A stretch of 64,000 nucleotides of DNA from positions 899-64,898 of the forward strand of contig CAZXNT010000003.1 in the NCBI GenBank assembly GCA_964642155.1, in the 5' to 3' direction. The DNA comes from an uncultured Candidatus Saccharibacteria bacterium (GTDB taxonomy: Bacteria > Patescibacteriota > Minisyncoccia > UBA6257 > UBA9933). Below, piece after piece: positions 21,853 to 50,090 of this stretch (positions are counted from its first letter, which is position 1; the number at the start of each line of letters is the position of its first letter). The position numbers and the translations under genes are program-made. The notes under the pieces were generated by a model that was not told where the DNA came from, ran no database searches, and saw only the letters and a list, made by a program, of their open reading frames with translations.

Positions 21853-22581
21853 TTACAAGAGCTTGTTTTTTCTCTGCCATTCATCTATTTTTTTATGATT
21901 TCCGGACAAAAGGATTTTTGGAACTTTATATTTTTTTCCGCCAGCTGGCGGATAAACAAATACTTCCGGCCTGGTGTAAACGGGCAAACCGACGCCATGC
22001 CGCTTTTCTTCCAAAGATTCCTGCTTGCCCAAAACGCCGGAAATCTGGCGCGAAACAGAATCAATTAAAATCATTGCTGGAAGTTCACCGCCGGTTAAAA
22101 CATATGGCCCGACAGATATTTCCTGAATCTTAAATCCTAAATCCAAAATAACTTTTTTAACTCGGGCGTCTATTCCTTCATAACGACCGCAAATTAAAAT
22201 AAGGTTGTCATATTTTTCAGATAATTGCTTCGCAATTTTATTGTCAAATTGTTTGCCTACCGGCGAAAATAAAATTACTTTAATTCTGTTAATTCTCAAA
22301 TTCTCAAGAATTTGAGAATTAACATCTATTTTTTTCTTAATTTTCAAAATCGAACTTATCGCTTTTATCAAAGGTTCAATTTTAAAAACCATTCCCGGTC
22401 CTCCGCCAAAAGGCCTGTCATCAACTTTGCGATGCTTATCTTTGGTAAAATCGCGCAAATTATGAATTTCAATTTGAATAAGTTTATTTTTTTGCGCCCG
22501 CTTCAAAATAGACTCGTTTAAATATGATCCGTCTTTGGCGGAAAAAATTTTCGGAAAAATTGTGATGATGTCAAATTTCAT
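21853..22581 (-). CDS. trmD: tRNA (guanine37-N1)-methyltransferase TrmD, carrying an in-frame 12-codon insertion encoded by a 36-bp palindrome
   Basis: SPOUT motifs DDRPFGGGPGMV and ICGRYEGID. The palindrome at 22288..22323 encodes VNSQILENLRIN, which is absent from the equivalent E. coli TrmD region. Confidence 0.9.
   Translation of the reverse strand: MKFDIITIFPKIFSAKDGSYLNESILKRAQKNKLIQIEIHNLRDFTKDKHRKVDDRPFGGGPGMVFKIEPLIKAISSILKIKKKIDVNSQILENLRINRIKVILFSPVGKQFDNKIAKQLSEKYDNLILICGRYEGIDARVKKVILDLGFKIQEISVGPYVLTGGELPAMILIDSVSRQISGVLGKQESLEEKRHGVGLPVYTRPEVFVYPPAGGKKYKVPKILLSGNHKKIDEWQRKNKLL
22288..22323. repeat. 36-bp palindromic element (17-2-17) inserted in frame in trmD
   Basis: GTTAATTCTCAAATTCT-CA-AGAATTTGAGAATTAAC. 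Related copies at 48844..48879, 49161..49196 and 50055..50090. Confidence 0.7.
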
Positions 22582-22949
22582 AAAATCATTTGTAAGAATT
22601 AATTGCGTTATTTACAATATTCTCGGACAAATTATTTTTCAGAAGCAGAATAATTTTGTTCCAGCGGCACCCCGCTAAGCGGGGCTTCGCCCTCGGGCTG
22701 GCATCCAGCCAATTTAATACTTCATTTTAATCTCAAATTCCTGTTATTTCAACGATAGTTGAAATAACAGGAATTGTCGAAATTGAAAAATTTGATTGAA
22801 AGATATTAAAAATTCTTTTATTCTATCTATAAACTGGCTGGAATCAAGCTGCCAACCCTGCGGGATGTTCCGAAAAACAATTTGTCCGAGATATAAAGAT
22901 AAAATCAGGCGTAAAATCTTTTTTATAGCCAACTTGTCTGGGTAGGGGG

Positions 22950-23050
22950 AAATAGCAAAAACAAAATTATTTCTGAAACCTTAACGGAAGCGCAGCCCAG
23001 CACATAACTTGTTATGTGCTGGGCGTGAGCGGGTTGAAGAAATAATTTTG
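22950..23050. repeat. copy 2 of the repeated structured element
   Basis: Same conserved core CTGAAACCTTAACGGAAGCGCAGCC ... GCGTGAGCGGGTTGAA, with a different inner hairpin and an outer stem that covaries with copy 1. Confidence 0.4.
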
Positions 23051-23125
23051 TATTTGCTGTTCATGCGGCGAAAAAAGATTTTACGCTTGATGTAAATAAC
23101 GCTCGAGATTCTTACATATATAGTA

Positions 23126-23158
23126 AACCAAAAATCCCGCCATTGAAAGCGGGATTTT
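23126..23158 (-). terminator. rho-independent terminator after the KH-domain gene
   Basis: On the minus strand aaatcccgc-tttcaatg-gcgggattt followed by ttgg ttt. Confidence 0.5.
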
Positions 23159-23171
23159 CATTTTACTAAAT

Positions 23172-23471
23172 TTATATACCATCCGTAGGTCTGTTAAATG
23201 ACGGCCTTGGTCCTCTTGTTGAACCCTCCGGCTCAATAATCTTCAAATTGACGCGGGCATTGTTTTTGATGCCAACGATTTTGAGAAGTGAGCGGATGGA
23301 TTGCGCAGTGGCTCCTCCTTTGCCAATAATTTGCGCCATATCCGTGGCATTAACTTTGAGAGTTAAAAGCACCCCCATTTCATCAACCTTGCGTTCAACT
23401 TTTACTTCATCCGGATGGTCAACGATTGATTGTATAAGAAATTCAAGGAATTTCTGGTCTTTTGCTTCCAT
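23172..23471 (-). CDS. KH-domain RNA-binding protein (UPF0109/YlqC family)
   Basis: GKGGATAQSIRSLLK KH signature. Sits between rpsP and trmD as in the conserved rpsP-KH-rimM-trmD operon. Confidence 0.75.
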   Translation of the reverse strand: MEAKDQKFLEFLIQSIVDHPDEVKVERKVDEMGVLLTLKVNATDMAQIIGKGGATAQSIRSLLKIVGIKNNARVNLKIIEPEGSTRGPRPSFNRPTDGI

Positions 23472-23543
23472 GCTATTAAAATTCTTTCTTTATTTCTTTT
23501 TTTCTTTTTTTCGACCTTTCTTTAACATCCTGCAATTTTAAAT

Positions 23544-23828
23544 CTATTTGGCTTCTTCCGTCTTTTTCTTTTTATGGACAGCTATTTTTTTACTCTCAAT
23601 CACGCCCGCTTTTACCAATAAATTATGAATACTGGCTGTTGGCTGAGCGCCGGTTTTCAACCTATACGCTATTCTTTCTTTTTTAATTTCAAATTTTTTT
23701 GAAATGGGATCGTACCAGCCCAAATCCTCAACGCAATCCCCGCCCATTTTTGAGCGTTTTTCAGCCACAATAATCCGATAACTCGGCTGATGCTTTTTCC
23801 CTATTCTTTTTAATTTAATGGCTAACAT
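23544..23828 (-). CDS. rpsP: 30S ribosomal protein S16
   Basis: MLAIKLKRIGKKHQPSYRIIVAEKRSK N-terminus. Confidence 0.9.
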   Translation of the reverse strand: MLAIKLKRIGKKHQPSYRIIVAEKRSKMGGDCVEDLGWYDPISKKFEIKKERIAYRLKTGAQPTASIHNLLVKAGVIESKKIAVHKKKKTEEAK

Positions 23829-23854
23829 AGAATATAGCTTTTAGCTTATAGTTT

Positions 23855-26062
23855 TTAACTTTTAGTGTCAAGCTTCAACGATAATAACTTTGACGTGCCG
23901 TCGTCGTTCATTGTGACGCCGTATAAAACATCGGCCACTTCCATTACCGCCCGATTGTGGGTAACGATGATAAATTGCGTGTCTCCGGAAAAATCTTTAA
24001 CAAGATTGGCGAACATTTGGGAATTTTTTTCGTCTAAAGGCGCGTCAATTTCGTCCAAAACCAAAAACGGCGGCGGACTAACGGAAATTAAAGCGAAAAG
24101 CGCGGCGATGGAAACCAAACTTTTTTCTCCTCCGGAAAGCATCTCCACTCCGGTAATTTTTTTTCCGGGCAAATTCAAATCAATTTCAACGCCAATTTTT
24201 TCTTCCTGTTCTTGTTCATCATTTTGATTTTCACTATTGTTTTCGTCTTCGCCGTTTTTGATTTTTGAGATTTGATTTTTGATTTTAAGCTTAGCGTGTC
24301 CTCCTTTGAACATCAATCTGAAAAAATGGTCGAATTTTTCGTTTATCGCGCGAAAAGCGTTTAAAAATTCTTTATGAATCCGCTCTTTCAAGTCCTTGAT
24401 TAAAATTTTCAAATCATCTGTCGCTTTTTCCAAATCATTAATCTGACCGGATAAAAAATTATAATGTTTTTCCGTTTCTTCGGCTTCTTTTATCAAGGAT
24501 TGGTCTATTTCGCCGATACTCGCCAATTCTCCGCGCAAACGAAGCATTTTTCGCTCCGCCTCATAAATATTCACCTCTTCGGGGTCAATATTAAAGCCTT
24601 GCGGAGGCAATAATCTAAATTCGTTTATTGACCGGCCGATTTGCTCCAACTGCGCCTCTAAATCACTTAATTTCATATCAAGTTTTTCTCGCTCAAAAAT
24701 CATCTGCTGTTTCTTATTTTCCAGCAATCTTATTTCATCGCGTTTGGCATCCATCGCTTCAAACGCTTTTTGAAATTGCTTATTAAAATCCTGCAAGCCA
24801 GCGGTAATTTCCGCTTCCATTTTTTCAACTTGTTTTAAATCGGTTTCAATCAAAACGATTTCTTTAAGCAAATCGTTTTTTATTTTAATAATGTCTTCCA
24901 ATTCTTTGGATTTTGAAAAATCAGCCGGTTTATTGTTTTTGGAATCGGAGAAAAAAACGCCTATCTTTTCCACAACGCTTTTAATGACGGCCGCGACTTC
25001 TTTCATATTTTCAAAAACAATATCATCAAGAGATTTTTTTATTTCCTTGACCAGTCGCGCTAATTCATCTCCGTTAAAAGACAATTCTTCCTTTTTTTCT
25101 TTTTCGCCGTGAAAAGAAATATCGCCGAGAATTTCCGCTTTTGCCTCCAAACGGCTTAATTCTTTTTGGATTTTAAGATGTTTACTTGATAATTCATTTT
25201 TACGGGTTTTAACGGAATCAAAATTGCCGCCTTCGGATTTTTCTTCCAATTTTCTAACATTGCTTTCCAAAATTTTTAATTCCGCGATTTTCTCCGCAAT
25301 AATTTTGGCCGTTTCTTCCAATTCCGGCTCTAATTTTTGTTTATCTTTTTCTATTCCGCTTAATTTTAAAGAAAAATATCCGTCTTCAAGATTTTTCAAT
25401 TCGGTTTCCAATTGCGCTCTTTTTTCCCATTTGACAGTCTGGCGTTTCAACATTCTTAAGCGCGGCAAAACTTCTTCAACCATCGCTTTCACTCTTTCAA
25501 GATTGATATTGGTATTATTCAGTTTTCTTTCCGCTTCTGATTTTTTGATCTGAAATTCGCGAAGACCAAGAACTTCTTCAATCATTATTCTTCTTTCTTC
25601 GGGACTCACGCGGACAAACAAATCGCTGGAACCCTGATTAATTATCGCAAGTCCTTTTGTGCCAAGCCGCGCCCGAGCGAAAAAATCAACAATATCTTTT
25701 AACCTCACTTCCGATTTATTGAGAAAATATTGGGAAGCGCCGTCGCGCGCCACGCGCCGGACAATGGAAATTTCAGGAAATTCTTCATCAACCAATTTGG
25801 AATTATTTTCAAAATTAAGAGAAACTTGCGCCATTCCCGCCCGGCTTTTTTTCGACGTACCGGCAAAAATCAAATTTTCAATTTTATCGCCCCTTAAATT
25901 TTTAGCTTCCCGTTCTCCAAAAATCCAGCGAATAGCGTCAATAATATTGCTTTTGCCGCTTCCGTTCGGACCGACAATCGCGGTAATCCCTTTTGGAAAT
26001 TCCAAAACCGCCTTTGAAGCGAATGATTTAAATCCGTTAAGTTCCAATGATTTAAGAAACAT
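23855..26062 (-). CDS. smc: SMC-family ATPase (short, apparently hinge-less)
   Basis: N-terminal FKSF...GPNGSGKSNIIDAIRW, C-terminal LSGGEKSLVSIAALFAL...LDEIDAPLD. Lies in an rnc-smc operon context. At 735 aa it is shorter than canonical SMC. Confidence 0.7.
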   Translation of the reverse strand: MFLKSLELNGFKSFASKAVLEFPKGITAIVGPNGSGKSNIIDAIRWIFGEREAKNLRGDKIENLIFAGTSKKSRAGMAQVSLNFENNSKLVDEEFPEISIVRRVARDGASQYFLNKSEVRLKDIVDFFARARLGTKGLAIINQGSSDLFVRVSPEERRIMIEEVLGLREFQIKKSEAERKLNNTNINLERVKAMVEEVLPRLRMLKRQTVKWEKRAQLETELKNLEDGYFSLKLSGIEKDKQKLEPELEETAKIIAEKIAELKILESNVRKLEEKSEGGNFDSVKTRKNELSSKHLKIQKELSRLEAKAEILGDISFHGEKEKKEELSFNGDELARLVKEIKKSLDDIVFENMKEVAAVIKSVVEKIGVFFSDSKNNKPADFSKSKELEDIIKIKNDLLKEIVLIETDLKQVEKMEAEITAGLQDFNKQFQKAFEAMDAKRDEIRLLENKKQQMIFEREKLDMKLSDLEAQLEQIGRSINEFRLLPPQGFNIDPEEVNIYEAERKMLRLRGELASIGEIDQSLIKEAEETEKHYNFLSGQINDLEKATDDLKILIKDLKERIHKEFLNAFRAINEKFDHFFRLMFKGGHAKLKIKNQISKIKNGEDENNSENQNDEQEQEEKIGVEIDLNLPGKKITGVEMLSGGEKSLVSIAALFALISVSPPPFLVLDEIDAPLDEKNSQMFANLVKDFSGDTQFIIVTHNRAVMEVADVLYGVTMNDDGTSKLLSLKLDTKS

Positions 26063-26735
26063 ATTTCAGGGCATTCTTCGCTGCTTCCACTTCCGCTTCC
26101 TGTTTTGAAGAGCCTTTGCCTTCGGCAATTAATTTATCGCCGCAATAAACGCCCACCGTAAAAATCTTGGCATGGTCCGGCCCCTTTTCGGATAAAACTT
26201 CGTAAACGGGCGTGGTTTTTGATTTCTCCTGAATTATTTCCTGAAACAAACTTTTCGGGTCCTCGTAAAGCTTGTTTTTCATCACTTCATCAAGATGATT
26301 GATAACCGTTTTTTCAATAAAATTTTTCGCTATCGCGTATCCGGCGTCAAGATAAATCGCGCCCAAAAGCGCTTCAAAAACATTCGCCAAAATAACTTCT
26401 CGCGCCTTGCCCGTGTCTTTCGCTTCTCCGCGCGAAAGCAAAATGAAATTATCCAATTCCGTTTCTTTGGCGACAATCGCAAGCATCTGGTAATTAACCA
26501 AAGCCGCCCGAATACTCGTAAGGTCGCCTTCCGGCAAATCAGGAAATCTGTTAAAAAGTCCTTCGGTCGTTGCCAATTCCAAAACCGCGTCCCCTAAAAA
26601 TTCCAAACGCTCATTATGCGGCACCCCCCATTTGGGATTTTCATTCAAATAAGAACGATGAGTTAAAGCTTCTTTAAGAAAATCCTTATTTTTGAAAACA
26701 ACGCCGATTTTATTTTCTAATTTTGTAAAATCCAC
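26052..26735 (-). CDS. rnc: ribonuclease III
   Basis: ERLEFLGDAVLEL signature plus a dsRBD. Confidence 0.9.
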   Translation of the reverse strand: MDFTKLENKIGVVFKNKDFLKEALTHRSYLNENPKWGVPHNERLEFLGDAVLELATTEGLFNRFPDLPEGDLTSIRAALVNYQMLAIVAKETELDNFILLSRGEAKDTGKAREVILANVFEALLGAIYLDAGYAIAKNFIEKTVINHLDEVMKNKLYEDPKSLFQEIIQEKSKTTPVYEVLSEKGPDHAKIFTVGVYCGDKLIAEGKGSSKQEAEVEAAKNALKYVS

Positions 26736-26811
26736 CCGAGTTAGTAATTAGGAAATAATAATCAATAACTAGGGTTTAAAAAATCATTCCCTGGTTACTA
26801 GTTACTAATTT

Positions 26812-27237
26812 CTAGTTGCTAGTTCCTATTTGTTTATACACCGTCCCCAACACTCCGTTTATGAATTTTGAAGAATTCGGGCCGCTGTAATTTTTTGCTA
26901 ATTCTATCGCTTCGTTAATCGCCACTTTCTCCGGCACTTCTTTTTTATCCGCGTATAAAAGTTCGTAAAGCCCGATACGCAAAACATTCCTGTCAACTAT
27001 GGAAATCTGGCTCAACGGCCATTCCGGAGCGGCTTTTTCAATAATTTTATCAAGAGCGTCCAAATGTTCAATAACTCCCTTAATAATTCGCCAAGCGAAA
27101 TCCGGCTCATCAACGCCACTGCCAAATTCATTAAGATTCCGTTCAACAATTTTATTTAAATCCTCTTTTTTATTGTAAAAATCCCACTCGTAAAGAGATT
27201 GAAGAACAATACTTCTTATCAAGTGCCGAGTGGCCAT
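26812..27237 (-). CDS. nusB: transcription antitermination factor NusB
   Basis: NusB fold pattern. Adjacent to rpmF. Confidence 0.8.
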
Positions 27238-27431
27238 TATTTTTTAACTCTAATTTTCGGGACTTTTACAACCTTGCCTTTATAGCTTCCACAACTTGCG
27301 CAAATTTTATGCGGTCTGTTCGGCGCCTGACAATTCTGGCAAGCAAAAATCTGACTCGGTTTTAAAGCTAAGTGCGACCGCCTGCGGCCAACTTTAGATT
27401 TAGTATGATGTTTTACCGATACGCCACCCAT
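27237..27431 (-). CDS. rpmF: 50S ribosomal protein L32 (zinc-ribbon type)
   Basis: [14 protein letters not shown] plus CxxC...CxxC. Confidence 0.8.
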
Positions 27432-27470
27432 AGTTTAATCAGTTTAATTTTAAAATTTCAAAAAGTCAAC

Positions 27471-27893
27471 TTAAACGCCGGTGCTACCGAATCCGTTTTC
27501 TCCTCTTTGGCTTTCATTTAATTCAGAAACTATTTCAATTCGCGGCTGTTCAATTTTTTGGATAAGCATTTGGGCGATTTTAGAATTCTTTTTCACAATA
27601 AAATCTTCTTGCCCCAAATTTATTAAAACAACTTTTATTTCTCCGCGATAACCCGCGTCAATCACGCCAGCCATTGTTTTAACGCCATTTTTAACGGCCA
27701 AGCCGCTTTTATCCCAAACCAATCCGACATATCCTTCGGGGATTTACATTTTAACGCCGGTTCTTATTGCTTTTCTTTCCATTGGCTTCAAAACAATGTC
27801 TTCAACCGAATAAAAATCAAGCCCCGCGTCGCCCTTCGTCGCGTAATTAGGAACCGTTGCGTCTGAATCAATTTTTAAAATTTTAATTTTCAT
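27471..27893 (-). pseudogene. dut: dUTP diphosphatase interrupted by a single in-frame TAA (at 27744..27746)
   Basis: N-terminal 49 codons (MKIKILKIDSDATVPNYATKGDAGLDF...TGVKM), then TAA, then IPEGYVGLVWDKSGLAVKNG...GVIDAGYRGEI in the same frame. Confidence 0.6.
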
Positions 27894-27942
27894 AAAAATA
27901 TTTTATAGAAAAAATAAGGGACTAACAACTATTAATTTCCAT

Positions 27943-28833
27943 TTAATTTTGAACATTTAACAATTTTTGTTTAAGTTTATGCGTATTTCCGTATTTTAAC
28001 AACCCCAAATAAGAATTAATTGATTCTATTTTCGCGTCTGCGGTTATTTTTCTAAACATTCTTCTCTTTGTAGTTGTTCTCAAAACCCTATTATGCGGAA
28101 AATTTACCCAACCGAGAAAATCGACGCCCGAATCGAACGTTTTTATGGAAACCTTATCAGGATGAAGCGAGAGTTTTAATTGTATTTCTAAAAATTTGGA
28201 TATTTTAGAGATAAGATTTTCCAAATAATTTTTATTTTCCGAAAAAATTACAAAGTCGTCGGCATAACGGATATAATAACGAATTTTTAATTCTCTTTTA
28301 ATAAAATGATCAAATTTATTCATATAAACATTTACAAAAAGCTGGCTAGTGAGATTGCCAAGCGGAAGTCCGACACCAATTTTTCCTTCGGTATTAAAAC
28401 TATCTATAATCTGCGAAAGAAGCCATAAAATATCTTTATCCTTAATATGTTTCACCAAAATATTTTTTAATATTTCGTGGTCAATACTCGCAAAAAACTT
28501 TCTGATGTCGCATTTTAAAATCCAACATGTTTTGGTGTTGTTTTCGTTTGTAATACGCGCTAATTTTCTGAATCTGTTAATCGCCTTGTGTGTACCTTTT
28601 CTTAATCGGCAAGAAAAAGAGTCCGCTATGAATTTTTTGTCAAAATACGGATATAAAATACTATAAATAGCGCGATGAACAAGCCGGTCGCGAACACTTG
28701 CTTTATGAATATCTCTCGGTTTCGGGTCGTTAATTTTAAACGCTTCGTACCCTCCGTGTTGATACGATTTTCCCGCCAATTCCCGATGAAGCGATAAAAT
28801 ATTATCCAAAAAATGCAACGAAAATTCCGCCAC
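27943..28833 (-). CDS. diversity-generating retroelement (DGR) reverse transcriptase, main body
   Basis: RT motifs PRDIHKASVRDRLV, DGR-specific LPLGNLTSQLF (I/LGxxxSQ) and YADD (RYADDFVIF). About 300 aa with no maturase or endonuclease. The N-terminal LENLLVSWREFLRGKRK segment lies upstream of an in-frame TGA at 28840..28842 (ORF 28840..29022). Confidence 0.8.
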   Translation of the reverse strand: MAEFSLHFLDNILSLHRELAGKSYQHGGYEAFKINDPKPRDIHKASVRDRLVHRAIYSILYPYFDKKFIADSFSCRLRKGTHKAINRFRKLARITNENNTKTCWILKCDIRKFFASIDHEILKNILVKHIKDKDILWLLSQIIDSFNTEGKIGVGLPLGNLTSQLFVNVYMNKFDHFIKRELKIRYYIRYADDFVIFSENKNYLENLISKISKFLEIQLKLSLHPDKVSIKTFDSGVDFLGWVNFPHNRVLRTTTKRRMFRKITADAKIESINSYLGLLKYGNTHKLKQKLLNVQN

Positions 28834-28914
28834 ATCTTTTCATTTTCTTTTCCCGCGCAAAAACTCCCGCCACGATACAAGTAAATTCTCCAAAGATATG
28901 ATATTATTAAAAGT

Positions 28915-29313: not shown

Positions 29314-29332
29314 ACGCGGAAAAGGATTGACT

Positions 29333-29465
29333 TTCGGAGACGGAAAACGAACTTGTTGTTGTCATTCCACCTGTTCGAGGGCTTGGCATTGTTGTCGTTA
29401 AGCCACAAGCCATCATCATTCCTGTTGAGGTTGAACACGTTCGGATTGCCATCGCGGGCGGTTAT
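29333..29465 (-). repeat. DGR template repeat (TR)
   Basis: ~133 bp. About 97 percent identical to the VR except at adenines (minus-strand sense). Rich in AAY codons. Confidence 0.8.
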
Positions 29466-34847: not shown

Positions 34848-36067
34848 ATTTTTTGAATTTCCAAAATTCTGTTATATTTCGCCAATCTTTCCGGTTTTGC
34901 CGGCGCGCCGGCTTTAATGCCCCAAGCGTTAATGGCAACGCTTAAATCCGCGATAAAATCGTCCATTGTTTCGCCACTCCGATGGCTCACCACCGCCTGC
35001 CAATTATTTTCATAAGCCATTTTTACGACATTTAATGTTTCCGTAAGCGTGCCGATTTGATTCGGTTTTATTAAAATCGCATTGCCGGATTTTTTCTCTA
35101 TCGCGGTTTTTAGACGTTCAGAATTGGTAGTCGTCAAATCATCCGTGATAATTAAAAAATCGTCCGCTGCTATCCTATGGGATAGCACGGAAAAATCATT
35201 AAAAGATTCTTCATAAAACGGGTCTTCAATTGAAATAATATTATAAGCGTCAATCAGTTTTAAATAATAATCTTTCAATTCCTCTGCTGAATATTTCTTG
35301 CCGTTTATTAAATAATATCCATCTTTACCCTCCTTCGCTAAAGCTTCGGCGGGCACGTAAAATTGAGTTGCCGCAACGTCTAACCCAATTTTTAATGGGT
35401 ATTTATATTTTTCAATCAAATCCGCCAAAATTTCAAGCGCCTCTTCATTATTTCTGAACGGCGCGGAAAATCCGGCCTCGTCGCCCAAAAAAATATTTTC
35501 CTTGCCGAATTTATTTTCCAAAAATTCTTGTAATTTGCGATAAAATTCTTTGCCAATGCTTAAGGCGATGCCGAAATCATCCACCGTTGGTATAACTTGA
35601 AATTCCTGAAACTCAAGCTTATTTTGAGCATGCGCCCCGCCATTGATAACGTTGAAAATCGGCTTTGGTGTTCCTAATTTCTGATTATTAATTCCTAATT
35701 CCTTATTTATATATTGGAAAAGTTCCTTCCCCTCACTTTTTGTTTTCAATCGCGCGAAGGCCAAGGACAAAGATAAAATCAAATTACCGCCCAAACTGCT
35801 TTTATTTTCCGTGCCGTCCAAAGAAATTAAAAAATTGTCGAATTCTTTCTGGCTTTGAAAATCTTTTTCCAATATCTTATTTCTAATTTCTTCAAATTTT
35901 TCTAACGCCTTTTTCGGTTCCAAAACGAATGCTTCGTGCGCACCCGTGCTTTTTCCGGCCGGCACGCTGGCAATTGCCGAAAATTCGCCGCTTTTCAATT
36001 CCGCTTCTAAAGTTTCTTTACCGCGAGAATCTAAAATGATTTTTAAATTGACATTAATAATTTTCAT
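34844..36067 (-). CDS. eno: enolase
   Basis: IILDSRGKETLEAEL..., catalytic residues, ~407 aa from the internal Met. The track ORF extends to 36103. Confidence 0.9.
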   Translation of the reverse strand: MKIINVNLKIILDSRGKETLEAELKSGEFSAIASVPAGKSTGAHEAFVLEPKKALEKFEEIRNKILEKDFQSQKEFDNFLISLDGTENKSSLGGNLILSLSLAFARLKTKSEGKELFQYINKELGINNQKLGTPKPIFNVINGGAHAQNKLEFQEFQVIPTVDDFGIALSIGKEFYRKLQEFLENKFGKENIFLGDEAGFSAPFRNNEEALEILADLIEKYKYPLKIGLDVAATQFYVPAEALAKEGKDGYYLINGKKYSAEELKDYYLKLIDAYNIISIEDPFYEESFNDFSVLSHRIAADDFLIITDDLTTTNSERLKTAIEKKSGNAILIKPNQIGTLTETLNVVKMAYENNWQAVVSHRSGETMDDFIADLSVAINAWGIKAGAPAKPERLAKYNRILEIQKI

Positions 36068-36090
36068 TTCTAATTCTAAATCCAAATAAA

Positions 36091-36124
36091 AACATTCTAA
36101 CATTCTTGAGAATGTTAGAATGTT
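36091..36124. promoter_or_regulatory. 16-2-16 palindrome AACATTCTAACATTCT-TG-AGAATGTTAGAATGTT
   Basis: Seen directly. Overlaps the stop of the ArsR gene and lies upstream of eno. Confidence 0.45.
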
Positions 36125-36381
36125 TTTATAAAACTTATAAATCTTTTGCCGTAAGGCGAAAGTGTGTGAATTACTTGCCTGCCTTTGTATTTTTTATTTA
36201 AAAGCCCGGCTTGAACTAACCGCCTGGTATGTTGAGATATTGTCTTAAAATTACAACCTAAATCCTTAGATATTCCGTCTAAGGAAACGCCCTCTAATCT
36301 ATTTACTAACAATAAAATTTCAATCCTCCTATGGTTAGCCGCGCCCTTAAAATACCTTTCCAGTTGTTTTGCCGTTTTCAT
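36115..36381 (-). CDS. ArsR-family winged-HTH regulator (paralog B)
   Basis: ANHRRIEILLLV ... CNFKTISQHTRRLVQAGLL. Confidence 0.75.
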   Translation of the reverse strand: MKTAKQLERYFKGAANHRRIEILLLVNRLEGVSLDGISKDLGCNFKTISQHTRRLVQAGLLNKKYKGRQVIHTLSPYGKRFISFIKTF

Positions 36382-36410
36382 ATTTTTATTTTTATATTTT
36401 ATATACTATC

Positions 36411-36450
36411 ACAACATTCTAACATTCTCAAGAATGTTAGAATGTTGTGT
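36411..36450. promoter_or_regulatory. 19-2-19 palindrome CACAACATTCTAACATTCT-CA-AGAATGTTAGAATGTTGTG upstream of ArsR-B
   Basis: Seen directly. Inverse orientation of the 36091 copy. Confidence 0.45.
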
Positions 36451-36695
36451 ATTGAAATTCAATCATTAATTATTTGTGTAATGTTCTCAGTTTTATGGCC
36501 GTATTAAAATCTCCCCCGATTGATTGCTTTATAATATCTGTCTTTTTGGTATCCCGCTTTTTCCATTTTTTGGTTGGCTTGCATAAACCGCAAGTAGATT
36601 TTTTTTTCGCATATTTTTTTAATTAAATAATTTTATTTTAAATCAATTCTTCTTTTATAATTTCAAAAATTTTCTGGTGGCTCTATAATTTTGAA

Positions 36696-37972: not shown

Positions 37973-37979
37973 AAAATTT

Positions 37980-41080: not shown

Positions 41081-41102
41081 CCGACACCTCCTTTTATCTA
41101 AA

Positions 41103-43357: not shown

Positions 43358-43378
43358 GAATTAATTCTAACACAAAAT

Positions 43379-44113
43379 CTACTTTTTTCTAAAATCCAAC
43401 TGCTTAAATGGCTGAGGCTTGTCTGAAGAACGCCAATTTTCCCATTGCTGTTTTAATTGCTTATAACCAAGACCATGGGAATGATAGACGGAAAATTTAA
43501 TGTCTCGCGCCGCTTTATATCCTTTAGAAAACCAATAATTCGCCCACTCCCCGTCTTCTCCGCCAAGACCGTATTTTTCATTGAAATTTCTTTTCTCCCA
43601 TAAATCTTTCCTAATTATTGCATTTGTAAAACCCATTACCCCCATTCCTCCCTGCTCAATAATAATTTTCTTTTAAAATATATTTCTAATTTTGCAAAGA
43701 TATTTATTAAAAATCAGTTTTTCCCAAACAGAACCGTCGGACAACGCCCAAACAAAACCATAAACTCCCATTATTTTATCATCTGTAAAATTTTTTAATC
43801 CATCCGCAAGCCATGTTTTAGATATAGGCAAAGAATGCCCGCTTAAAATAACCAAATATTTTTCAGCCAAAGATTGTTTAATGCCGTAATTTAAGGCAAA
43901 AGGATAACTAAATTCTTCTTGTTTTATTTTAAAAATTCTAATATTTAAAATTTCGGAAAATTGATTAACAATATCAAGAGTTTTGTCAGTTGACCCGGAA
44001 TCAACAATAATAATTTCAAAATTTTTATAAGTTTGGCTGGATAAACGCTTTAAAATTTCTCCAATCCATTTTTCTTCGTTTTTAGTTCTTATAATTATTA
44101 AAACTTCAACCAT
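43379..44113 (-). pseudogene. family-2 glycosyltransferase interrupted by in-frame TAA (43673..43675)
   Basis: The N-part (IIIVDSGSTDKT, GT-A) and C-part (GGEDGEW...YHSHG) are in the same frame, separated by one TAA and 9 codons. Confidence 0.55.
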
Positions 44114-44163
44114 AAATAAAATTTAATTTTTTATTTTGTTATTATTTAGATATTGACCTACGG

Positions 44164-46008
44164 CTAATTTTTTTCCGAAACAAACGCTATTGTTCCGTAA
44201 AAAGTAGTCCCCGTCCCTTCTTCGGAAGCCGCGCCAATCGTTCCATTGTGGGCTTCAATGATGCCCTTAGCAATTGCCAAACCAAGACCGGTTCCTTTTT
44301 GTTCAACTTTCAAAATACGGGATTGAAATTGTTTGAATTTATTGAAAAGCAAAGGAATATTTTCGGTAGAAATTCCGATGCCGGTATCGGTTACGGCGAT
44401 AATCAAGGAATCGGGAAGATTTTGGATGTTTTTGTCGTCTCCGTGTATTAACCATTCGATTTGGGCCTGTTTCGCTTCCTGGTCAAGATTCTGACCCTTT
44501 CTGTGAATTAACGCTTGAATGGTTACTATTCCTCCGGGCTTGGTGAATTTTAAAGCATTGGAAATAAAATTATTGAAAACCTGGGCTATGCGGACCGGGT
44601 CAACGGAAACCACATCGAGAAAGCCGTCTACCGCAATTTTAAGTGTAATCTTTGCTTCTTTGGCGGCCAACTCGTAGAAATGTATTTTATCCTGAATAAT
44701 TTCTTTGATATTTGTCGGCTGTTTGTGAATTTCAAACTTACCTGCTTCTAATTTAGCCGCGTCCAAAAGGTCATTAACAAGGTCCAACATTCCGCGAGTG
44801 TTTTTCGAAACCATTTGAGTCATTTCTATATAATCTTTGTCTCCCGGCTTCAATGCCCCATCTCCTAAAAGTTCAAGAATTTTCATTACGTTGCTCAACG
44901 GCGAACGAAGCTCATGCACCATCATGGATATAAAATCTTCACGCAAACGTTCAAGTTCTTTTTCTTGAGTAATATCATGTAAAATAACTACGCCTCCGAG
45001 AGTTTCCTCGCCTTTAATTCCGACAACGCTGCGCACGGGAGCCACTAATATCTGATAAAATTTATCTAAAACTACAACATCCTGCGCAGCAAGAGTTTTT
45101 CCGAGTTTTACGCTTTCTTCCAGTTTCCCCCGAATATCAAATTTTCCTCCTAAAACGTCAATAATGTCAAAAATAGTAATATCGTTTTTTGCAGTAAGAC
45201 CGAGAATCCTTTTTGCCGCCGGGTTCACCACTAAAAGCCGATAGTCCTGGTCAGTCATAATAACTCCTTCGGTCATGCTTTCCACCATGGAATTTACTTT
45301 GCGCTGTTCCGTTTGCACCACTTCCTGAAGACGCGTAACTGCCTGGGACGCTTGGTGAGTAATTTTATAAAGAATCGTCATTTCTTCTTCTTTATAAAGA
45401 CCCTTTTCTGTATGCGCCACCGTGAGCATCCCCACCACTTTTTCGCCGATAATAAGGGGAATATTAAAAAACGAGCCAACAAGCACATCTATGTCTTCCA
45501 AAAGAATGGCTCCTGAAAGTAATTCTTCCACTTGGTTTTTTTTAAATTCCCTGTCAAGAAGCGCGGAAAGTGATTTTAACATTCTGTCTTCAATTTCATT
45601 TACAAATGACCGGGAAACCGATTCTTCTAGATGCACCTTAAAAATAATTCTTTCGCCCCCCAAAAGCATATATGAAGCCGCGGAATATTCGATAAACTGA
45701 TGCAAAGAGCCCGTAATAATATCAACGATGTTCTGGATATTAAGCGAGTAGCCAACCCGCTCGCCTAATTCCTTAAGAATTGCTAGTTCGTACATCCGTC
45801 TGTTTATTTCATCTCCTCCGCGTTCAATGTTGGTTTTGGATAACTGCAGTTGTTTTTCAAATTGAATTTTGATTTCTTTTTCCCGCGCCTCCATAACAGC
45901 GACGATTTTTTTATTTTTCCAAAACGCAAAAATAACCGCGCCCGTGATAAAACCGACGACAAACAATATTACTCCAAATATCATTTCAAAATTGTACATT
46001 GAAAGCAA
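44164..46008 (-). CDS. sensor histidine kinase (TM, GAF/PAS, HisKA, HATPase)
   Basis: H-box HELRSPLSNV and G-boxes GTGLGLAIAKGIIEAHNG. No response regulator adjacent. Confidence 0.85.
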   Translation of the reverse strand: MLSMYNFEMIFGVILFVVGFITGAVIFAFWKNKKIVAVMEAREKEIKIQFEKQLQLSKTNIERGGDEINRRMYELAILKELGERVGYSLNIQNIVDIITGSLHQFIEYSAASYMLLGGERIIFKVHLEESVSRSFVNEIEDRMLKSLSALLDREFKKNQVEELLSGAILLEDIDVLVGSFFNIPLIIGEKVVGMLTVAHTEKGLYKEEEMTILYKITHQASQAVTRLQEVVQTEQRKVNSMVESMTEGVIMTDQDYRLLVVNPAAKRILGLTAKNDITIFDIIDVLGGKFDIRGKLEESVKLGKTLAAQDVVVLDKFYQILVAPVRSVVGIKGEETLGGVVILHDITQEKELERLREDFISMMVHELRSPLSNVMKILELLGDGALKPGDKDYIEMTQMVSKNTRGMLDLVNDLLDAAKLEAGKFEIHKQPTNIKEIIQDKIHFYELAAKEAKITLKIAVDGFLDVVSVDPVRIAQVFNNFISNALKFTKPGGIVTIQALIHRKGQNLDQEAKQAQIEWLIHGDDKNIQNLPDSLIIAVTDTGIGISTENIPLLFNKFKQFQSRILKVEQKGTGLGLAIAKGIIEAHNGTIGAASEEGTGTTFYGTIAFVSEKN

Positions 46009-46034
46009 AATTAAAGATTAATTTGCCAATACTA

Positions 46035-46379
46035 TTATTTTTCATCCGCCGAAATTACCGACTTGTAGATAGAACTGGTCAGGCGCGCGGCCACGGTGAT
46101 AAAAATCATGGAAATTAACAAAAATCCATGGCTTATCACATAATGAAAAAAATCTCTCAGTTCTACGGGTAATGGAATAAGGTCATGAAAAATATGGTCA
46201 ACCCCCCAAAGTGTGAAAAAAATTGAAGAAAGTATAAACCATAAATAAGGCCTTCTAATCTGGCCACCCACCAACAATTTTCGCGCCACAATCAATTGCC
46301 AGATTGTATAAATGGACAATCCGACAAAAATGAACAATGGCACCTCATAAATTATTTTTAACATGATGTTAATTATCAT
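46035..46379 (-). CDS. hypothetical membrane protein
   Basis: 114 aa with 3 hydrophobic helices. Confidence 0.4.
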   Translation of the reverse strand: MIINIMLKIIYEVPLFIFVGLSIYTIWQLIVARKLLVGGQIRRPYLWFILSSIFFTLWGVDHIFHDLIPLPVELRDFFHYVISHGFLLISMIFITVAARLTSSIYKSVISADEK

Positions 46380-46458
46380 AAACTACAGACATAACTCTTA
46401 TTAATGAACTTTTTAGCAAGTTTAAGTCAGAGTTTATGAATTTTTAATATATTAATTT

Positions 46459-46731
46459 TTATTCGACTTTTTTATTGAGACTCGGATATTTAGCGAGAAC
46501 CGAGTCCATAGCGTTTTTCACGATGAGTCCGGAGAGCGCGACATATTCATCCATTAGTTTTTGGAATACCGCCTGCGGTTCTCCGTTAATATCGACGACT
46601 ATTCCGTTATCCTCAATTTTTAATTCCTTGACATTACGCGCTTTTAACACGGCAATGTTGGGCCCCAAAATAACAATTTGTTTTTGAATAACCTCTGTTA
46701 GCAGGGATTTATATTGTTCTATATTTTCCAT
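46459..46731 (-). CDS. hypothetical protein
   Basis: 90-aa ORF with no recognisable motif. Confidence 0.35.
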   Translation of the reverse strand: MENIEQYKSLLTEVIQKQIVILGPNIAVLKARNVKELKIEDNGIVVDINGEPQAVFQKLMDEYVALSGLIVKNAMDSVLAKYPSLNKKVE

Positions 46732-46895
46732 AATATTATTTTTTATTTAATGCGTAAACACGCTAACAAACGATTCTTCGACCTTAGAACCACCCAAATA
46801 ATTTTCGTCTTATTTTATATAGTATACTATTTATTCCATTCCAATAAAAATAGTTATCCACAGCCCCCCCATAACTTCTCCCCGACTTGGCAATT

Positions 46896-47351
46896 TTAAA
46901 AAATATTATTTATTTTTATTTTTCTGCCCCTAAATTCAAATTCATCTCCAGATTTCTTTTGCAAAAATATTTGACCGATTGGAGATCCTACACTTATTAA
47001 TTTATATTTCTTTTTATTAATACTAATCTCATTAAGAATTCCAACTGAAATAAAATAATTGCTCTTATTCGTTTCAATAATTGAACCTAATTTGATTTTA
47101 TCAGTAATTTCAAATGGCATTTCATTTACAAAAGACAATAATTGCCGTACATCAAAAAGCTGTTTTTTATAAGAACTAACCGCGGCTTGAGCCTCTTCTT
47201 TAAAAGTATCATATCGCGATTCCATTCTGCCTTTATGACTAGCCGATTCTTTTTGCGCATTATCAATGGCATTTTTTAAAAAATCTATCTTTTTTTCCAA
47301 TTCTAATTTAGAAAATTCAATTAATTTCTTTTTAATTTCAATTTTATTCAT
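46896..47351 (-). CDS. greA: transcription elongation factor GreA
   Basis: Coiled-coil N-terminus and FKBP-like C-terminus (SVGSPIGQIFLQKKSGDEFEF). Confidence 0.8.
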   Translation of the reverse strand: MNKIEIKKKLIEFSKLELEKKIDFLKNAIDNAQKESASHKGRMESRYDTFKEEAQAAVSSYKKQLFDVRQLLSFVNEMPFEITDKIKLGSIIETNKSNYFISVGILNEISINKKKYKLISVGSPIGQIFLQKKSGDEFEFRGRKIKINNIF

Positions 47352-47500
47352 TTTGTTTTTAAAAATTTAATTATCTTTTTATAGCAATTTATACAAATAT
47401 GGAATTTTCTGACTTTGTTTTTATTGGGCGGACTAAACAAAATGGCGCCGAATTTATTTAATTCCTTTTTGCAAAAATCGCATTTGGGTTTTATCGCCAT
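47348..47500 (-). CDS. small zinc-ribbon protein (50 aa), stop overlaps the greA start (ATGA)
   Basis: MAIKPKCDFCKK...FHICINCYKK with two CxxC pairs. Translationally coupled arrangement. Below the 60-aa ORF-track cutoff. Confidence 0.45.
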   Translation of the reverse strand: MAIKPKCDFCKKELNKFGAILFSPPNKNKVRKFHICINCYKKIIKFLKTK

Positions 47501-47570
47501 AAATTTATTTTTTTATTTTTATTTTGTTTATTCCAACCCCGCAAAATGCGGGGTGAGAATTAACTAATTT

Positions 47571-48245
47571 TTATTTTTTGTGAATTTTAATCCCGTCTTC
47601 TCCAATAGTAATAAAAATTGAAGGAACATCTGTCCAACAGCCAGCATTAAAATAATTAACACCCATTATAACTTCTTTCGCTTCCCGATGAGTGTGCCCG
47701 CAAAAAACATAACGAATGCCCCTTTTTAAAGCATAACGCGCCGCGTTCTGGGCAACTTTTCCAGAAAGCCGAAGCCAACTTTTAGAAGCTCTTTTTATAA
47801 AACGGCTGAATCTTAAATCAAATCTTTGCAAAATTCTGTAAATAAACGAGGCAATATCGCTAATAACCTTGTTATTTGCTAAAAACCTATCAAACTGATG
47901 GCCGTGAATTGCCAGATATTTTTCATTTTTATAATTCCAAACATATTCCTGAAACACTTTAATTCCGATAAAACGGGATATTACTTTGAATATAAATTCG
48001 TCGTGATTTCCCAAAACCCAAACTATTTCAATATTGCTTTTTGGGTTGGAAAGTTCCTGAATATAAGAAAGTAATTCCCAATGATTTCTCTCTAAGTGAT
48101 TGAAATTTAAATCATCAAAAATATCACCAAGAAGAATAAGGCGGCTGAAACTGTGATTTTTAAGGACATTGAGCAATTCTTTTGCCCGGCTTACCTCCGA
48201 ACCAAGATGAATATCGGAAACGATAATTGTGTTAATTTTAGGCAT
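47571..48245 (-). CDS. calcineurin-like metallophosphoesterase
   Basis: VSDIHLG, GDIFDD, GNHDE motifs. Confidence 0.75.
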   Translation of the reverse strand: MPKINTIIVSDIHLGSEVSRAKELLNVLKNHSFSRLILLGDIFDDLNFNHLERNHWELLSYIQELSNPKSNIEIVWVLGNHDEFIFKVISRFIGIKVFQEYVWNYKNEKYLAIHGHQFDRFLANNKVISDIASFIYRILQRFDLRFSRFIKRASKSWLRLSGKVAQNAARYALKRGIRYVFCGHTHREAKEVIMGVNYFNAGCWTDVPSIFITIGEDGIKIHKK

Positions 48246-48305
48246 AAATTTAAAGTTTTCTTACTATTTATTATAATATTATCAAAAATTTGAAATTGAC
48301 ATAAT

Positions 48306-48822
48306 TTAAACAAAAATCGCGTTGTTAATCTCAATAAACTCAATTTGATTATTTTCCGTATCCCAAATTAAAAAAGTAGATTTTTTATATTTATGGCCGG
48401 ATATTTCGCCAGGATTGGCAAGTAAGCATTTATTTTCTAATATTTCAGAATATTGAGTATGATCATGCCCATAAAACACGGCGCTGTAACCGTCACTTTT
48501 CGCGGCAATTTCCGCAATATCCGGATAATGAGAAAGAAAAATTTTTACCGTCAATTTCAATCTCGGCACATATTTTATCGGCAATTTCCGCTTGTCCGCC
48601 ACTGGATAAAAAAGTTTTTGTAATTACAACCTTATCTCCGTCATTGTTCCCCCAAACAGCGAAAATATCCAAACCAGAATTTACCAAATTCTTGGCAATG
48701 CCATTATTTATAAAATCACCCCAAAATAACGCTTTTTTAATGCCGCGTTCTTTTATAATTTTCAATGCTTCTTCTAAATTATGGAAGTTATCGTGAATAT
48801 CCGATAAAATTGCGATTTTCAT
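48306..48822 (-). pseudogene. YfcE/MJ0936-type phosphodiesterase disrupted by frameshift at an A5T5 run (48546..48555)
   Basis: N-part ILSDIHDN ... and C-part GHDHTQ ... NPGEISG are in different frames and overlap. A one-base shift in aaaaattttt restores DGK-IFLSHYPD. Confidence 0.55.
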
Positions 48823-48845
48823 ATTTTTTTATTAATTTATTTTCT

Positions 48846-49136
48846 TTATTCCAAAATTCTCAAGAATTTGAGAATTAACTCGCCTCGCTTTGTGAGCTTA
48901 TGGCGGACATTGTGCCCGTTGGAGCGTTTCATTAAAAGACCACTGATTGCCAATCGTCTTATGTGCTCTGACGCGGTTTTAAAATTTAATTTTAATTTAT
49001 CCGCTATTTCCGTCACGGACATCTCCGGCTTCTTTCCTAAAAGTTCCAAAATTTCAACCCGACGATGATTGGCAACGCCTTTTATAATTCTTTCCAAATC
49101 ATAATAAGTTTTTTCTTTTTTCTCCGCTTTTTCCAT
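48846..49136 (-). CDS. ArsR-family winged-HTH regulator (paralog C)
   Basis: ANHRRVEILELL ... LNFKTASEHIRRLAISGLL. Paralogous to the 36115 gene. Confidence 0.75.
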   Translation of the reverse strand: MEKAEKKEKTYYDLERIIKGVANHRRVEILELLGKKPEMSVTEIADKLKLNFKTASEHIRRLAISGLLMKRSNGHNVRHKLTKRGELILKFLRILE

Positions 49137-49160
49137 ATTTTTATATTAACACCTTATTCA

Positions 49161-49196
49161 GTTAATTCCAATATTCTTGAGAATATTGGAATTAAC
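49161..49196. repeat. 36-bp palindromic element GTTAATTCCAATATTCT-TG-AGAATATTGGAATTAAC upstream of ArsR-C
   Basis: Seen directly. Same family as the trmD insertion. Confidence 0.6.
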
Positions 49197-49218
49197 TATT
49201 TTTTGTTATAACATCGCT

Positions 49219-50043
49219 TTATAATATTGCTTTGCGCGCTTTAATGGTTCTGCCGAAAAACTTGCTTCCTAAAATTGTGAATTTATCGGTTAAATCAGTG
49301 GAATAAAAATGAATAATTCCGTTTTTACCGATTTTTTCTTCTATTTCCTTGTGTTTATTTAAATAATCGCTTAGTTTTGACGGCACGACTTTTGTTTCTG
49401 ACACAATACGAATATCCGGCCCGATTATTTTACGTATTTTATTTTCTAAAATTCCATAATGGGTGCAGCCTAAAATTAGGGTGTCTATTTTTTTATTTAC
49501 AAGAGGACGCAAATAATCGCGGATTATCAATTCCGCTGCTTTTGAATTTTGTTCTCCGGATTCAATCAATGGCACAAGAAGAGGGCAGGCTTTTTGAAAC
49601 ACTTTTGCTTTAAGATTAAGTTTTTTAATTTCCCTTACAAATGCTTCTGAGCGTGTTGCGCTTTCTGTCGCAATCACGCCAATTTTTTTATTATGCGTTT
49701 TCTCTACGGCTTCTTCAGTCGCCGGAATAAGCACTCCAAGCGCTTTTTTATCCGACCAATGACTTGGCAAATATTCTTGCTGAATTTTACGCAAAGCCTC
49801 ACTGGAAGCGGTATTACAGGCTAAGATTATAAGCTCGCAATTGTTTTTAAAAAGAAAATTAACCGCTTGTTTAGTGAATTCATATATTGTTTCCTGAGAA
49901 CGCGTTCCATATGGAGTACGGGCAGTATCGCCTAAATAAATATAATTATAATCAGGAAGTTTTTTTACAATGCCGCGCAGAATATCCAACCCGCCGAAAC
50001 CGGAATCAAAAACGCCAATAAATTTATTTTTTGATTTTTGCAT
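49219..50043 (-). CDS. murI: glutamate racemase
   Basis: GVFDSGFGGL and GCTHY motifs. Confidence 0.85.
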   Translation of the reverse strand: MQKSKNKFIGVFDSGFGGLDILRGIVKKLPDYNYIYLGDTARTPYGTRSQETIYEFTKQAVNFLFKNNCELIILACNTASSEALRKIQQEYLPSHWSDKKALGVLIPATEEAVEKTHNKKIGVIATESATRSEAFVREIKKLNLKAKVFQKACPLLVPLIESGEQNSKAAELIIRDYLRPLVNKKIDTLILGCTHYGILENKIRKIIGPDIRIVSETKVVPSKLSDYLNKHKEIEEKIGKNGIIHFYSTDLTDKFTILGSKFFGRTIKARKAIL

Positions 50044-50054
50044 AATAAATAATA

Positions 50055-50090
50055 GTTAATTCTCAAATTCTTGAGAATATTGGAATAAAC
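50055..50090. repeat. 36-bp palindromic element (hybrid arms) upstream of murI
   Basis: GTTAATTCTCAAATTCT-TG-AGAATATTGGAATAAAC. Confidence 0.55.

Follow-up and report, generated by a model that had tools for sequence, protein, structure and literature searches.

The DNA considered here is a window of 64,000 nt from an uncultured Candidatus Saccharibacteria bacterium, with positions counted from its first nucleotide. It carries a family of short palindromes that stand on both sides of three paralogous genes for small winged-helix proteins of the ArsR type (arsR-A, arsR-B and arsR-C), and one copy of which is read in frame within trmD. The layout palindrome-gene-palindrome is found for all three paralogs within the 64 kb, and each paralog has its own type of palindrome. 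The genes concerned are the following.

15329..15595, minus strand: arsR-A, the third paralog, 88 aa; Pfam HTH_5, E 6.5e-10; phmmer match to ArsR-C, E 3e-6
21853..22581, minus strand: trmD, an intact open reading frame (ORF) of 242 aa that hosts an in-frame copy; Pfam tRNA_m1G_MT, E 1e-46
36115..36381, minus strand: arsR-B, 88 aa, ArsR/SmtB-type winged helix with the subfamily end ...FIKTF and stop; Pfam HTH_5 (E 2.5e-5) / HTH_27
48846..49136, minus strand: arsR-C, 96 aa, ArsR/SmtB-type winged helix; Pfam HTH_5, E 3e-8; PDB match HlyU, E 8e-6

The palindromes are listed by type.

22288..22323: A-type, GTTAATTCTCAAATTCT-CA-AGAATTTGAGAATTAAC, with perfect 18-nt arms over 22287-22324; inside the trmD coding sequence, where it is read as VNSQILENLRIN
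48844..48879: A-type copy with a degenerate left arm; supplies the C-terminal LILKFLRILE of ArsR-C and the stop codon
49161..49196 (49160-49197): A-type, perfect; 3' of murI, it precedes the arsR-C ATG by 25 nt from its near edge and by 42.5 nt from its centre
50055..50090: hybrid-arm A-type copy that precedes murI
47526..47564: a seventh, rearranged A-type copy, with outer arms GTTTATTCCAA...TGAGAATTAAC around a G+C-rich hairpin, CCCCGCAAAATGCGGGG, that replaces the inner heptamers
36092..36123: B-type, ACATTCTAACATTCT-TG-AGAATGTTAGAATGT, with perfect 21-nt arms (36086-36129); holds the ArsR-B stop codon
36414..36445: B-type, with perfect 19-nt arms (36410-36449); it precedes the arsR-B ATG by 33 nt from its near edge and by 48.5 nt from its centre
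15290..15319: Type-0, CATTGAACAATTC-TATG-GAATTGTTCAATA, 3' of arsR-A
15621..15650: Type-0, CATTGTACAATTC-TATG-GAATTGTACAATG, 5' of arsR-A
16249..16278: Type-0, one gene upstream of arsR-A
22596..22626: a possible decayed half copy, GTTATTTACAATATTCT, equal to an A-type arm at 15 of 17 positions and 26-42 nt upstream of the trmD ATG; weak, since one arm only is recognisable

The core ATTCT-YR-AGAAT (ATTCTYRAGAAT) has six matches in the window where 0.06 are expected, and none of 100 shuffles reached six; in four of these six the palindrome is perfect, with arms 18-21 nt long. The full site consists of four ATTCT-type heptamers, two direct and two inverted, on either side of a 2-nt centre and with a period of 8 bp in each arm. 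The Type-0 consensus is CATTG(A/T)ACAATTC-TATG-GAATTGT(T/A)CAATG, each arm of which is itself nearly palindromic, unlike the architecture of types A and B. When the sequence was re-read, all six A- and B-type copies named in a preliminary description of this DNA were found where it had put them, and the mixing of A-type arms between copies that it remarked on amounts to two interchangeable half-site/spacer variants, TCAAA and CAATA, which are frequently mixed in other genomes too. Four details had to be corrected, that of the trmD copy being taken up below. The 48844 copy was said to lie 3' of the ArsR-C gene and instead encodes the last 10 residues of the protein; the B-type pair does flank arsR-B on both sides, as described, with the ArsR-B stop codon inside the 36092 copy. 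The latter was also correctly said to precede eno, whose true start is at 36066, 20 nt past the palindrome, the ATG at 36103 not being the eno start.

Winged-helix genes bracketed by palindromes

Judged by sequence matches and by a predicted model, the flanked proteins belong to the ArsR/SmtB fold family (HTH_5 winged helix). Their sequence matches in the PDB are HlyU and CadC. The AlphaFold model of ArsR-C (predicted local distance difference test, pLDDT, 88) has the topology H-H-H-E-E-H, with residues 83-95 in the C-terminal helix, and its best Foldseek matches are AspA, HlyU, CzrA and SmtB. Neither of the sensor sites looked for in ArsR-B and ArsR-C, the alpha3N CXC for metals or thiols and the alpha5 Asp/His/His/Glu, was found. 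ArsR-C is free of cysteine, ArsR-B has a single cysteine at the start of the recognition helix, and the C-terminal helices LILKFLRILE and RFISFIKTF lack a His/Asp/Glu ligand pattern. Against a cutoff of 55 for NCBIfam HTH_metalloreg, B and C score below (37 and 47) and A above (57). The Pfam and NCBIfam matches of the flanked genes include no transposase family, except for one sub-threshold match of ArsR-B to an IS630 HTH region.

The C-termini of subfamilies B and C are written by the palindromes. The end ...ILKFLRILE plus stop of subfamily C is encoded wholly by the palindrome, and among 120 database homologs of ArsR-C, 113 end in [FL]L[RK]xLE. Subfamily B ends in ...FIKTF or ...TFQHS, the final residues and the stop codon again being supplied by the palindrome.

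Palindrome and gene are likewise coupled outside the window. To remove the bias of selection by the palindrome itself, a protein-first sample of 80 loci was drawn by a metagenome scan with an alignment of such proteins. Among these relatives, a 5' palindrome lies no more than 110 nt upstream in 74 of 75, a palindrome stands at the 3' end in 74 of 76, and both gene ends carry one in 68 of 71 (96%); the centre of the 3' palindrome is at one fixed offset in 67 of the 77 loci. In the sample selected by pattern (described below), an ArsR-B/C homolog lies within 100 bp of the palindrome in 26 of the 120 loci listed, and the stop codon of a flanked arsR gene always falls within the 3' palindrome, at one of three offsets only. 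The centre of the 5' palindrome is 30-54 nt upstream of the arsR ATG in most loci, a position that fits a promoter-overlapping site. A fourth ArsR-like gene (L124, 10714-11060) is bracketed by a further type, GGCTAATTCG-YR-CGAATTAGCC, and adjoins a trmD that has an intact in-frame palindrome.

The variants of palindrome and protein go together. In the protein-ascertained loci the centre dinucleotide matches between the 5' and 3' copies much more frequently than chance would give (TG/TG 27, GC/GC 19, z = 7.5), and dispersed copies carry the local variant (GC-centred, 8 of 8; YR-centred, 23 of 24). Among ArsR-C homologs, the recognition helix KT-A-S occurs only with AAATTCT, while KT-T/I-S may go with ACATTCT, the variant of subfamily B, whose own recognition helix has KT-I/T-S. 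By analogy with the 12-2-12 operators of ArsR proteins, such co-variation, as measured by statistics that ignore phylogeny, points to direct recognition. A fixed relative orientation of the flanking pair was considered and rejected: pattern-ascertained pairs follow no rule, and protein-ascertained pairs mostly share the centre.

In-frame copies in trmD and other genes

The window copy in trmD was described earlier as an in-frame insertion in a linker. It is in frame; its place is a loop of the N-terminal domain (residues ~85-100), where solved TrmD structures show a 16-residue gap, and not the inter-domain linker. Of the 120 closest TrmD relatives listed, the window protein (P0001) is alone in carrying the motif; the other 119 are without the 12 residues. 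Compared with P0095 (SILKIKKK-T-KIIIF), the window TrmD is ~15 residues longer. An exact look-up of the window TrmD sequence returned no record. On these alignments, the trmD copy is a lineage-specific insertion.

The nearest relatives, at 79-80% identity, have a different insert of 21 nt, made of tandem AGAATTN heptamers and slightly shifted in the loop. Among the low-complexity loop inserts of the Wolfebacteria-like relatives (L121, 3001-3699; L122, 2225-2953; P0002-P0120), one is made of four tandem AGAATTN heptamers (RIQNLEFRIKKK), and others are AATTCTAAA-type repeats (NSKFKILNSKQIPNSKFKK). Repeats that contain ATTCT thus seem to gather in the TrmD loop as a hot spot. Upstream of the window trmD, at 22736-22775, lies a perfect palindrome with 18-nt arms (AATTCCTGTTATTTCAAC / GTTGAAATAACAGGAATT), whose sequence is unrelated to types A and B.

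In a second clade of TrmD proteins, the palindrome lies a few residues earlier in the same loop and is found intact, altered or absent. The intact peptides are AHSNILKNVGMSG and AHSQILKNLRINK, the latter nearly that of the window; the altered ones are AFSYIPRNVGMRK, AYSNVLKNNRIKK and AYPPIRSNGKITT. Proteins without the insert have 212 aa, and the comparison of P0190 with P0151 gives a clean 14-residue insert. These loop states indicate that the insertions are old in this clade and independent of the one in the window lineage. The DNA of three second-clade trmD loci shows two intact palindromes and one altered (L125). The altered copy is still a perfect palindrome with 13-nt arms (CTCCTACATTCCT|AGGAATGTAGGAG), with compensating changes in both arms; its symmetry may have been kept either by selection or by templated correction from arm to arm.

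trmD is not the only host. At least 16 copies lie inside Pfam-verified genes of other Patescibacteria, with a Pfam match on both sides of the insert, and in several hosts the insert splits the domain match. Hosts in tRNA modification are TrmD (2), TsaD (2), TGT, MnmA and TruB; other translation-related hosts are YchF, a class I tRNA synthetase and a fragment of arginyl-tRNA synthetase; the remainder are MurD, a class V aminotransferase, an AIR-synthase-related protein, a glycosyltransferase, HsdS and TspO. tRNA-modification enzymes make up 5 of 15 host families, which is an enrichment (loci L031, L038, L070, L073, L089, L091, L102, L117 and L059, with the synthetases).

All 16 of these verified copies share one reading frame, xHSNIL(E/K)NVGMSx, the frame of the window peptide. 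As exceptions, the LigB copy (L010) is in another frame and the L037 copy probably precedes the true start codon. Were all three frames equally likely, 16 of 17 in one frame would have a probability of ~3e-7 by our own calculation; ORF-based detection is blind to frames that contain stops, yet the third frame is open and is unused in the hosts. Such a bias points to inserts that undergo translation and have been filtered for peptides that can be tolerated. RNA-level excision and split genes were rejected as candidates, as the ORFs broken by copies in stop frames are only cases of arsR plus the next gene and one adjacent pair (L103).

Dispersal and gene turnover

The genome scan covered one genome per species with the exact pattern ATTCYNNNATTCTYRAGAATNNNRGAAT and found at least 120 loci with at least 146 sites. 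Neither of the two outcomes that the preliminary description had named as contradicting it (TrmD orthologs of close relatives with the same 12 residues but no palindrome; no further copies elsewhere in the genome) was observed. Genes in the fetched loci were called as longest ORFs, a crude method, and taxon labels are given as written in the records. Among the matches listed, the records are mostly from Patescibacteria (Wolfe-, Nomura-, Zambryski-, Giovannoni- and Saccharibacteria, Paceibacterota and others), and about one fifth bear other labels such as Omnitrophota or Planctomycetota. At least two of the latter, labelled Planctomycetota, are genuine high-G+C contigs: L061 (1-460; 65% G+C) has the motif and an ArsR-C-like gene ending in ...ILTFLRTLE, and in L120 (700-1120; 69% G+C) a copy provides the last residues, TFSHS, and the stop of a 368-aa gene. 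That an A+T-rich motif is kept at 65-69% G+C implies a sequence-specific constraint.

The logo of the sites shows arms of 16-18 nt with the consensus (A)ACATTC(C/T)(A/C)ACATTCT-YR-, in an element of 32-38 bp whose ends are (A)ACATTC...GAATGT(T) or GTTAATTC...GAATTAAC. The variable arm positions co-vary symmetrically, 0.68-0.87 being complementary against 0.37-0.54 expected. By position, the 146 listed sites divide into 67 co-directional intergenic, 28 convergent, 10 divergent, 26 intragenic and 15 at a locus edge. A phage origin was discarded after 0 matches in 2.9 million viral contigs. Topical literature searches retrieved no published description of a palindrome-ArsR element, which is limited evidence of novelty.

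Comparison with a close relative locus, L206, shows that gene content turns over at the palindromes, whether by insertion or deletion. The ArsR-C of L206 is 99% identical to that of the window, and syntenic genes have ~80-97% nucleotide identity. Three copies around murI and arsR-C are kept (the equivalents of 48844, 49161 and 50055, the last as the same hybrid). In the window, the 47526 and 48844 copies bracket a block of 1.3 kb with two metallophosphoesterase ORFs, and share their outer arms and ~35 nt of flank. L206 (4560-4700) has a single copy and no such block, the left flank of one window copy being joined to the right flank of the other. It is also without the whole palindrome-arsR-B-palindrome cassette plus ~180 bp (L206 12340-12470; window 36067-36690), and there the stop codon of a GDSL lipase overlaps the eno ATG. 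The window has, at ~36627-36690, a non-coding remnant of the 3' end of the L206-type lipase, beside a GDSL lipase that is only 36% identical. The relatives L126-L128 carry the arsR-B cassette at the same place, and the 36414 copy is kept in them.

Some further features were seen around these sites. The metallophosphoesterase downstream of arsR-C (48306-48822) is in two overlapping ORFs (48493..48822 and 48306..48602) that match the two halves of Pfam Metallophos_2, as a frameshift in the gene or an error of sequencing would produce. The 47526 copy resembles a second small hairpin element nested in A-type arms. G+C-rich CCCGC-loop-GCGGG hairpins number five in the window (5631, 22671, 23136, 47538 and 63287) against 0.12 expected; two of them are identical (CCCCGCTAAGCGGGG). 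Probably the five serve as terminators or make up another family of small repeats. A tRNA gene at 57337-57407 abuts a perfect palindrome with 25-nt arms at 57405-57455.

Possible explanations and known systems

With a probability of roughly 0.6, we regard the elements as a dispersed family of palindromes, of the kind of repetitive extragenic palindromic (REP) sequences or Rickettsia palindromic elements (RPE), that is coupled to a cognate winged-helix protein across Patescibacteria. The ArsR protein would bind the palindrome as one or two dimers, in the way ArsR/SmtB repressors bind 12-2-12 sites, and the bound protein would regulate its own gene. Further copies would arise by a copying or recombination process and would persist where they are tolerated, namely in intergenic spacers, chiefly at gene 3' ends, and, in one permissive frame, in surface loops. 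The preliminary description had already been reminded of RPE by the trmD copy, and this likeness gains from the absence of the trmD residues in relatives, from at least 16 other housekeeping hosts and from the intact, altered and absent states of the TrmD loop.

Several points weigh against this explanation. Copy density is ~0.15-0.24 per kb within 1 kb of arsR and 0 at 3-4 kb, and each of three trmD loci of 15-21 kb yielded one copy; such a low density looks closer to a set of transcription-factor sites than to REP elements. No transposase or recombinase was found linked to the element, and no target-site duplication was seen. Binding of ArsR to the palindrome is a prediction. The palindromy kept in the trmD of L125 could mean functional sites rather than tolerated insertions, and the differences from L206 could be deletions by recombination between repeats instead of insertions. 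Furthermore, gene calls are crude, the first sample was drawn with the pattern as its criterion, and both the co-variation and the correlation of helix with base are confounded by shared ancestry.

A more ambitious form of the same idea may be entertained tentatively. By analogy with REP doublets and their associated transposases (REPIN-RAYT), the winged-helix gene and its palindromes would be an ancient, vertically inherited replicator pair dating from the root of Patescibacteria. The non-catalytic protein would recruit host recombination or replication, or shield and insulate the copies, and the pair would have written ~12 residues, more than once, into essential tRNA-modification enzymes and would mediate gain and loss of cassettes. 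In a variant, the protein would act throughout the genome as a roadblock or insulator, controlling translation-related genes via internal sites.

It is rather unlikely that the palindromes are ordinary operators of a small ArsR regulon, without mobility, the intragenic copies being selected roadblock or internal-promoter operators. ArsR/SmtB proteins do bind 12-2-12 inverted repeats, the gene-flanking layout is essentially invariant, the overall density is low with extra copies clustering within ~3 kb of an arsR gene, the palindrome within trmD stays symmetric through compensating changes, and hosts are enriched for tRNA-modification genes. However, the 58 genes with an upstream copy span 61 unrelated Pfam families, of which none recurs beyond NUDIX (twice), and on this ground a conserved regulon was rejected. 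Convergent spacers, where no promoter is present, hold 28 of the 105 intergenic copies (27%, against 15% of background gene pairs), and copies abut gene 3' ends (103) more than 5' ends (69). The 12-15 added residues require an insertion event, and the insert lies at differing points of the TrmD loop according to clade while most relatives have none. The alternative offered in the preliminary description, operators of the ArsR paralogs that have spread, accounts for a part of the evidence, as the likeness to RPE does for another, and the two readings combined describe it: bracketing in 68 of 71 relatives, the separate type of each paralog and the co-variation are in its favour, and a plain operator regulon is insufficient because downstream genes are unrelated, over a quarter of intergenic copies are convergent and some copies are intragenic. 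A promoter reading of the centre was also tried. The centre TTGAGA resembles a -35 box, with promoter-like matches at 36431, 48863 and 50071; this was rejected because its orientation is unrelated to gene direction across loci (CA 23 vs TG 21).

That the palindromes act as RNA hairpins, either terminators or mRNA stabilisers as proposed for REP sequences, with an incidental link to ArsR, appears improbable. Perfect window copies are stable, folding at -20 to -25 kcal/mol (z ~ -7 to -8; -20.3 kcal/mol for the trmD copy), the flanks across sites are A-rich 5' and T-rich 3', and both gene 3' ends and convergent spacers have an excess of copies. Two window copies were called terminator-like, and the 36092 copy, with A5/T5 flanks, is the sole one so called on the gene strand. 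On the other hand, terminators would not be expected to keep one stem sequence throughout a superphylum, the bracketing of 96% of ArsR-B genes is far from incidental, and the degenerate 48844 copy (-7.7 kcal/mol) and the hybrid 50055 copy (-11.9 kcal/mol) form poor hairpins, yet both are conserved in L206. Of the 67 co-directional sites, 12 have at least five T downstream and 22 at least five A upstream; for this absence of T-tract polarity with transcription a canonical intrinsic terminator was rejected. Arm mismatches on the sense strand do not favour G.U (38, against 59 A.C), on which ground a sense-strand RNA hairpin was rejected. An Rfam search of the window matched no family to the palindromes and found only one tRNA. 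Arm co-variation, the lack of a G.U preference and the conserved but poorly folding copies support a symmetry that would serve at the level of DNA rather than of an RNA hairpin.

DNA uptake sequences (DUS) and uptake signal sequences (USS) such as those of Neisseria and Haemophilus are also found within coding sequence, where they favour certain frames, and form inverted pairs at the ends of genes. A DNA-uptake or genome-marking role is scarcely credible for the palindromes, for although one motif is common to a large clade, coding copies have a preferred frame, 3' ends are enriched and many Patescibacteria are believed to depend on taking up DNA, the density is orders of magnitude below that of DUS/USS, several variants occur side by side in one genome, each tied to a cytoplasmic winged-helix gene of its own, related genomes have different variants, and a strict palindrome of four heptamers is not a feature of uptake sequences.

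Patescibacteria (also known as the candidate phyla radiation, CPR) have very small genomes that are poor in regulators and in known mobile elements, and most of them do not grow on their own. If the coupling of palindromes to a cognate protein is real, it offers a testable pair of regulator and site in organisms for which experimental genetics hardly exists. It would also be a second clear case, after Rickettsia, of palindromes in frame in essential proteins, here with a candidate partner protein, and would extend the symbiosis of repeat and flanked gene beyond HUH transposases. The palindromes would show where gene cassettes turn over, could account for a part of the odd insertions in CPR proteins that hamper alignment, and would serve as a sequence marker in binning and in work on the history of lineages.

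Among known systems, REP/REPIN-RAYT (Bertels and Rainey 2011, PMC3116915; PMC3337134; Di Nocera et al. 2013, PMC3733652) shares with the present family the short (20-40 bp) dispersed palindromes, the single-copy gene flanked on both sides by the repeat, a repeat type for each paralog, long-term vertical inheritance with co-evolution of protein and repeat, and the enrichment at gene 3' ends. Here, however, the flanked gene encodes an ArsR-fold protein of 88-96 aa without a nuclease domain instead of an HUH Y1 transposase, and the GTAG or CGTC end tag (PMC3733652) is absent from the Patescibacteria palindromes. REP sequences are extragenic and number tens to hundreds per genome; in the present case at least 16 copies are intragenic and in frame, the density looks far lower (locally 0-0.24 per kb in the fetched loci), and the 3' copy is part of the coding sequence of the gene.

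The second comparison is with RPE, whose description is reportedly due to Ogata et al. in 2000. They too are palindromes in frame in housekeeping genes that are left intact, lie in tolerant surface regions, have no known transposase, and include old insertions that are inherited vertically and drift. In contrast to the Patescibacteria elements, which measure 32-38 bp, are superphylum-wide, have an unrelated sequence and are tied to a winged-helix gene, RPE are ~100-150 bp long, specific to Rickettsia and without a known cognate protein. RPE are mentioned in PMC1779305 and PMC10969869. The Patescibacteria palindromes are members of neither family, because there is no HUH transposase, no GTAG tag and no sequence relation, and because size and host are different. 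A further parallel is found in the small dispersed repeats of cyanobacteria, said to have been reported by Elhai et al. in 2008: these are hairpin-capable repeats of 21-27 nt, nested and intragenic and with no known transposase, which differ in sequence and host clade and for which no cognate DNA-binding gene has been described.

On the protein side, the best fold match of the ArsR-C model is AspA (PDB 4RS8, 5K5Q), the centromere-binding protein of the Sulfolobus plasmid pNOB8, with E-values that are similar among many ArsR-family structures, AspA included. AspA is likewise a small ArsR-like winged helix without a sensor site that binds a palindrome beside its own gene; its gene shares a plasmid partition operon with those of ParB and ParA, whereas no such partners are seen here. 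The ArsR/SmtB repressors SmtB, CzrA, CadC and HlyU bind 12-2-12 operators. They have the same fold and an inverted repeat with a 2-bp centre just upstream of their own gene, and the four half-sites of the present palindromes would fit two dimers per site. Unlike those repressors, ArsR-B and ArsR-C have no metal or thiol sensor residues, a second site covers the stop codon, and the sites have spread to unrelated genes, convergent spacers and coding sequence.

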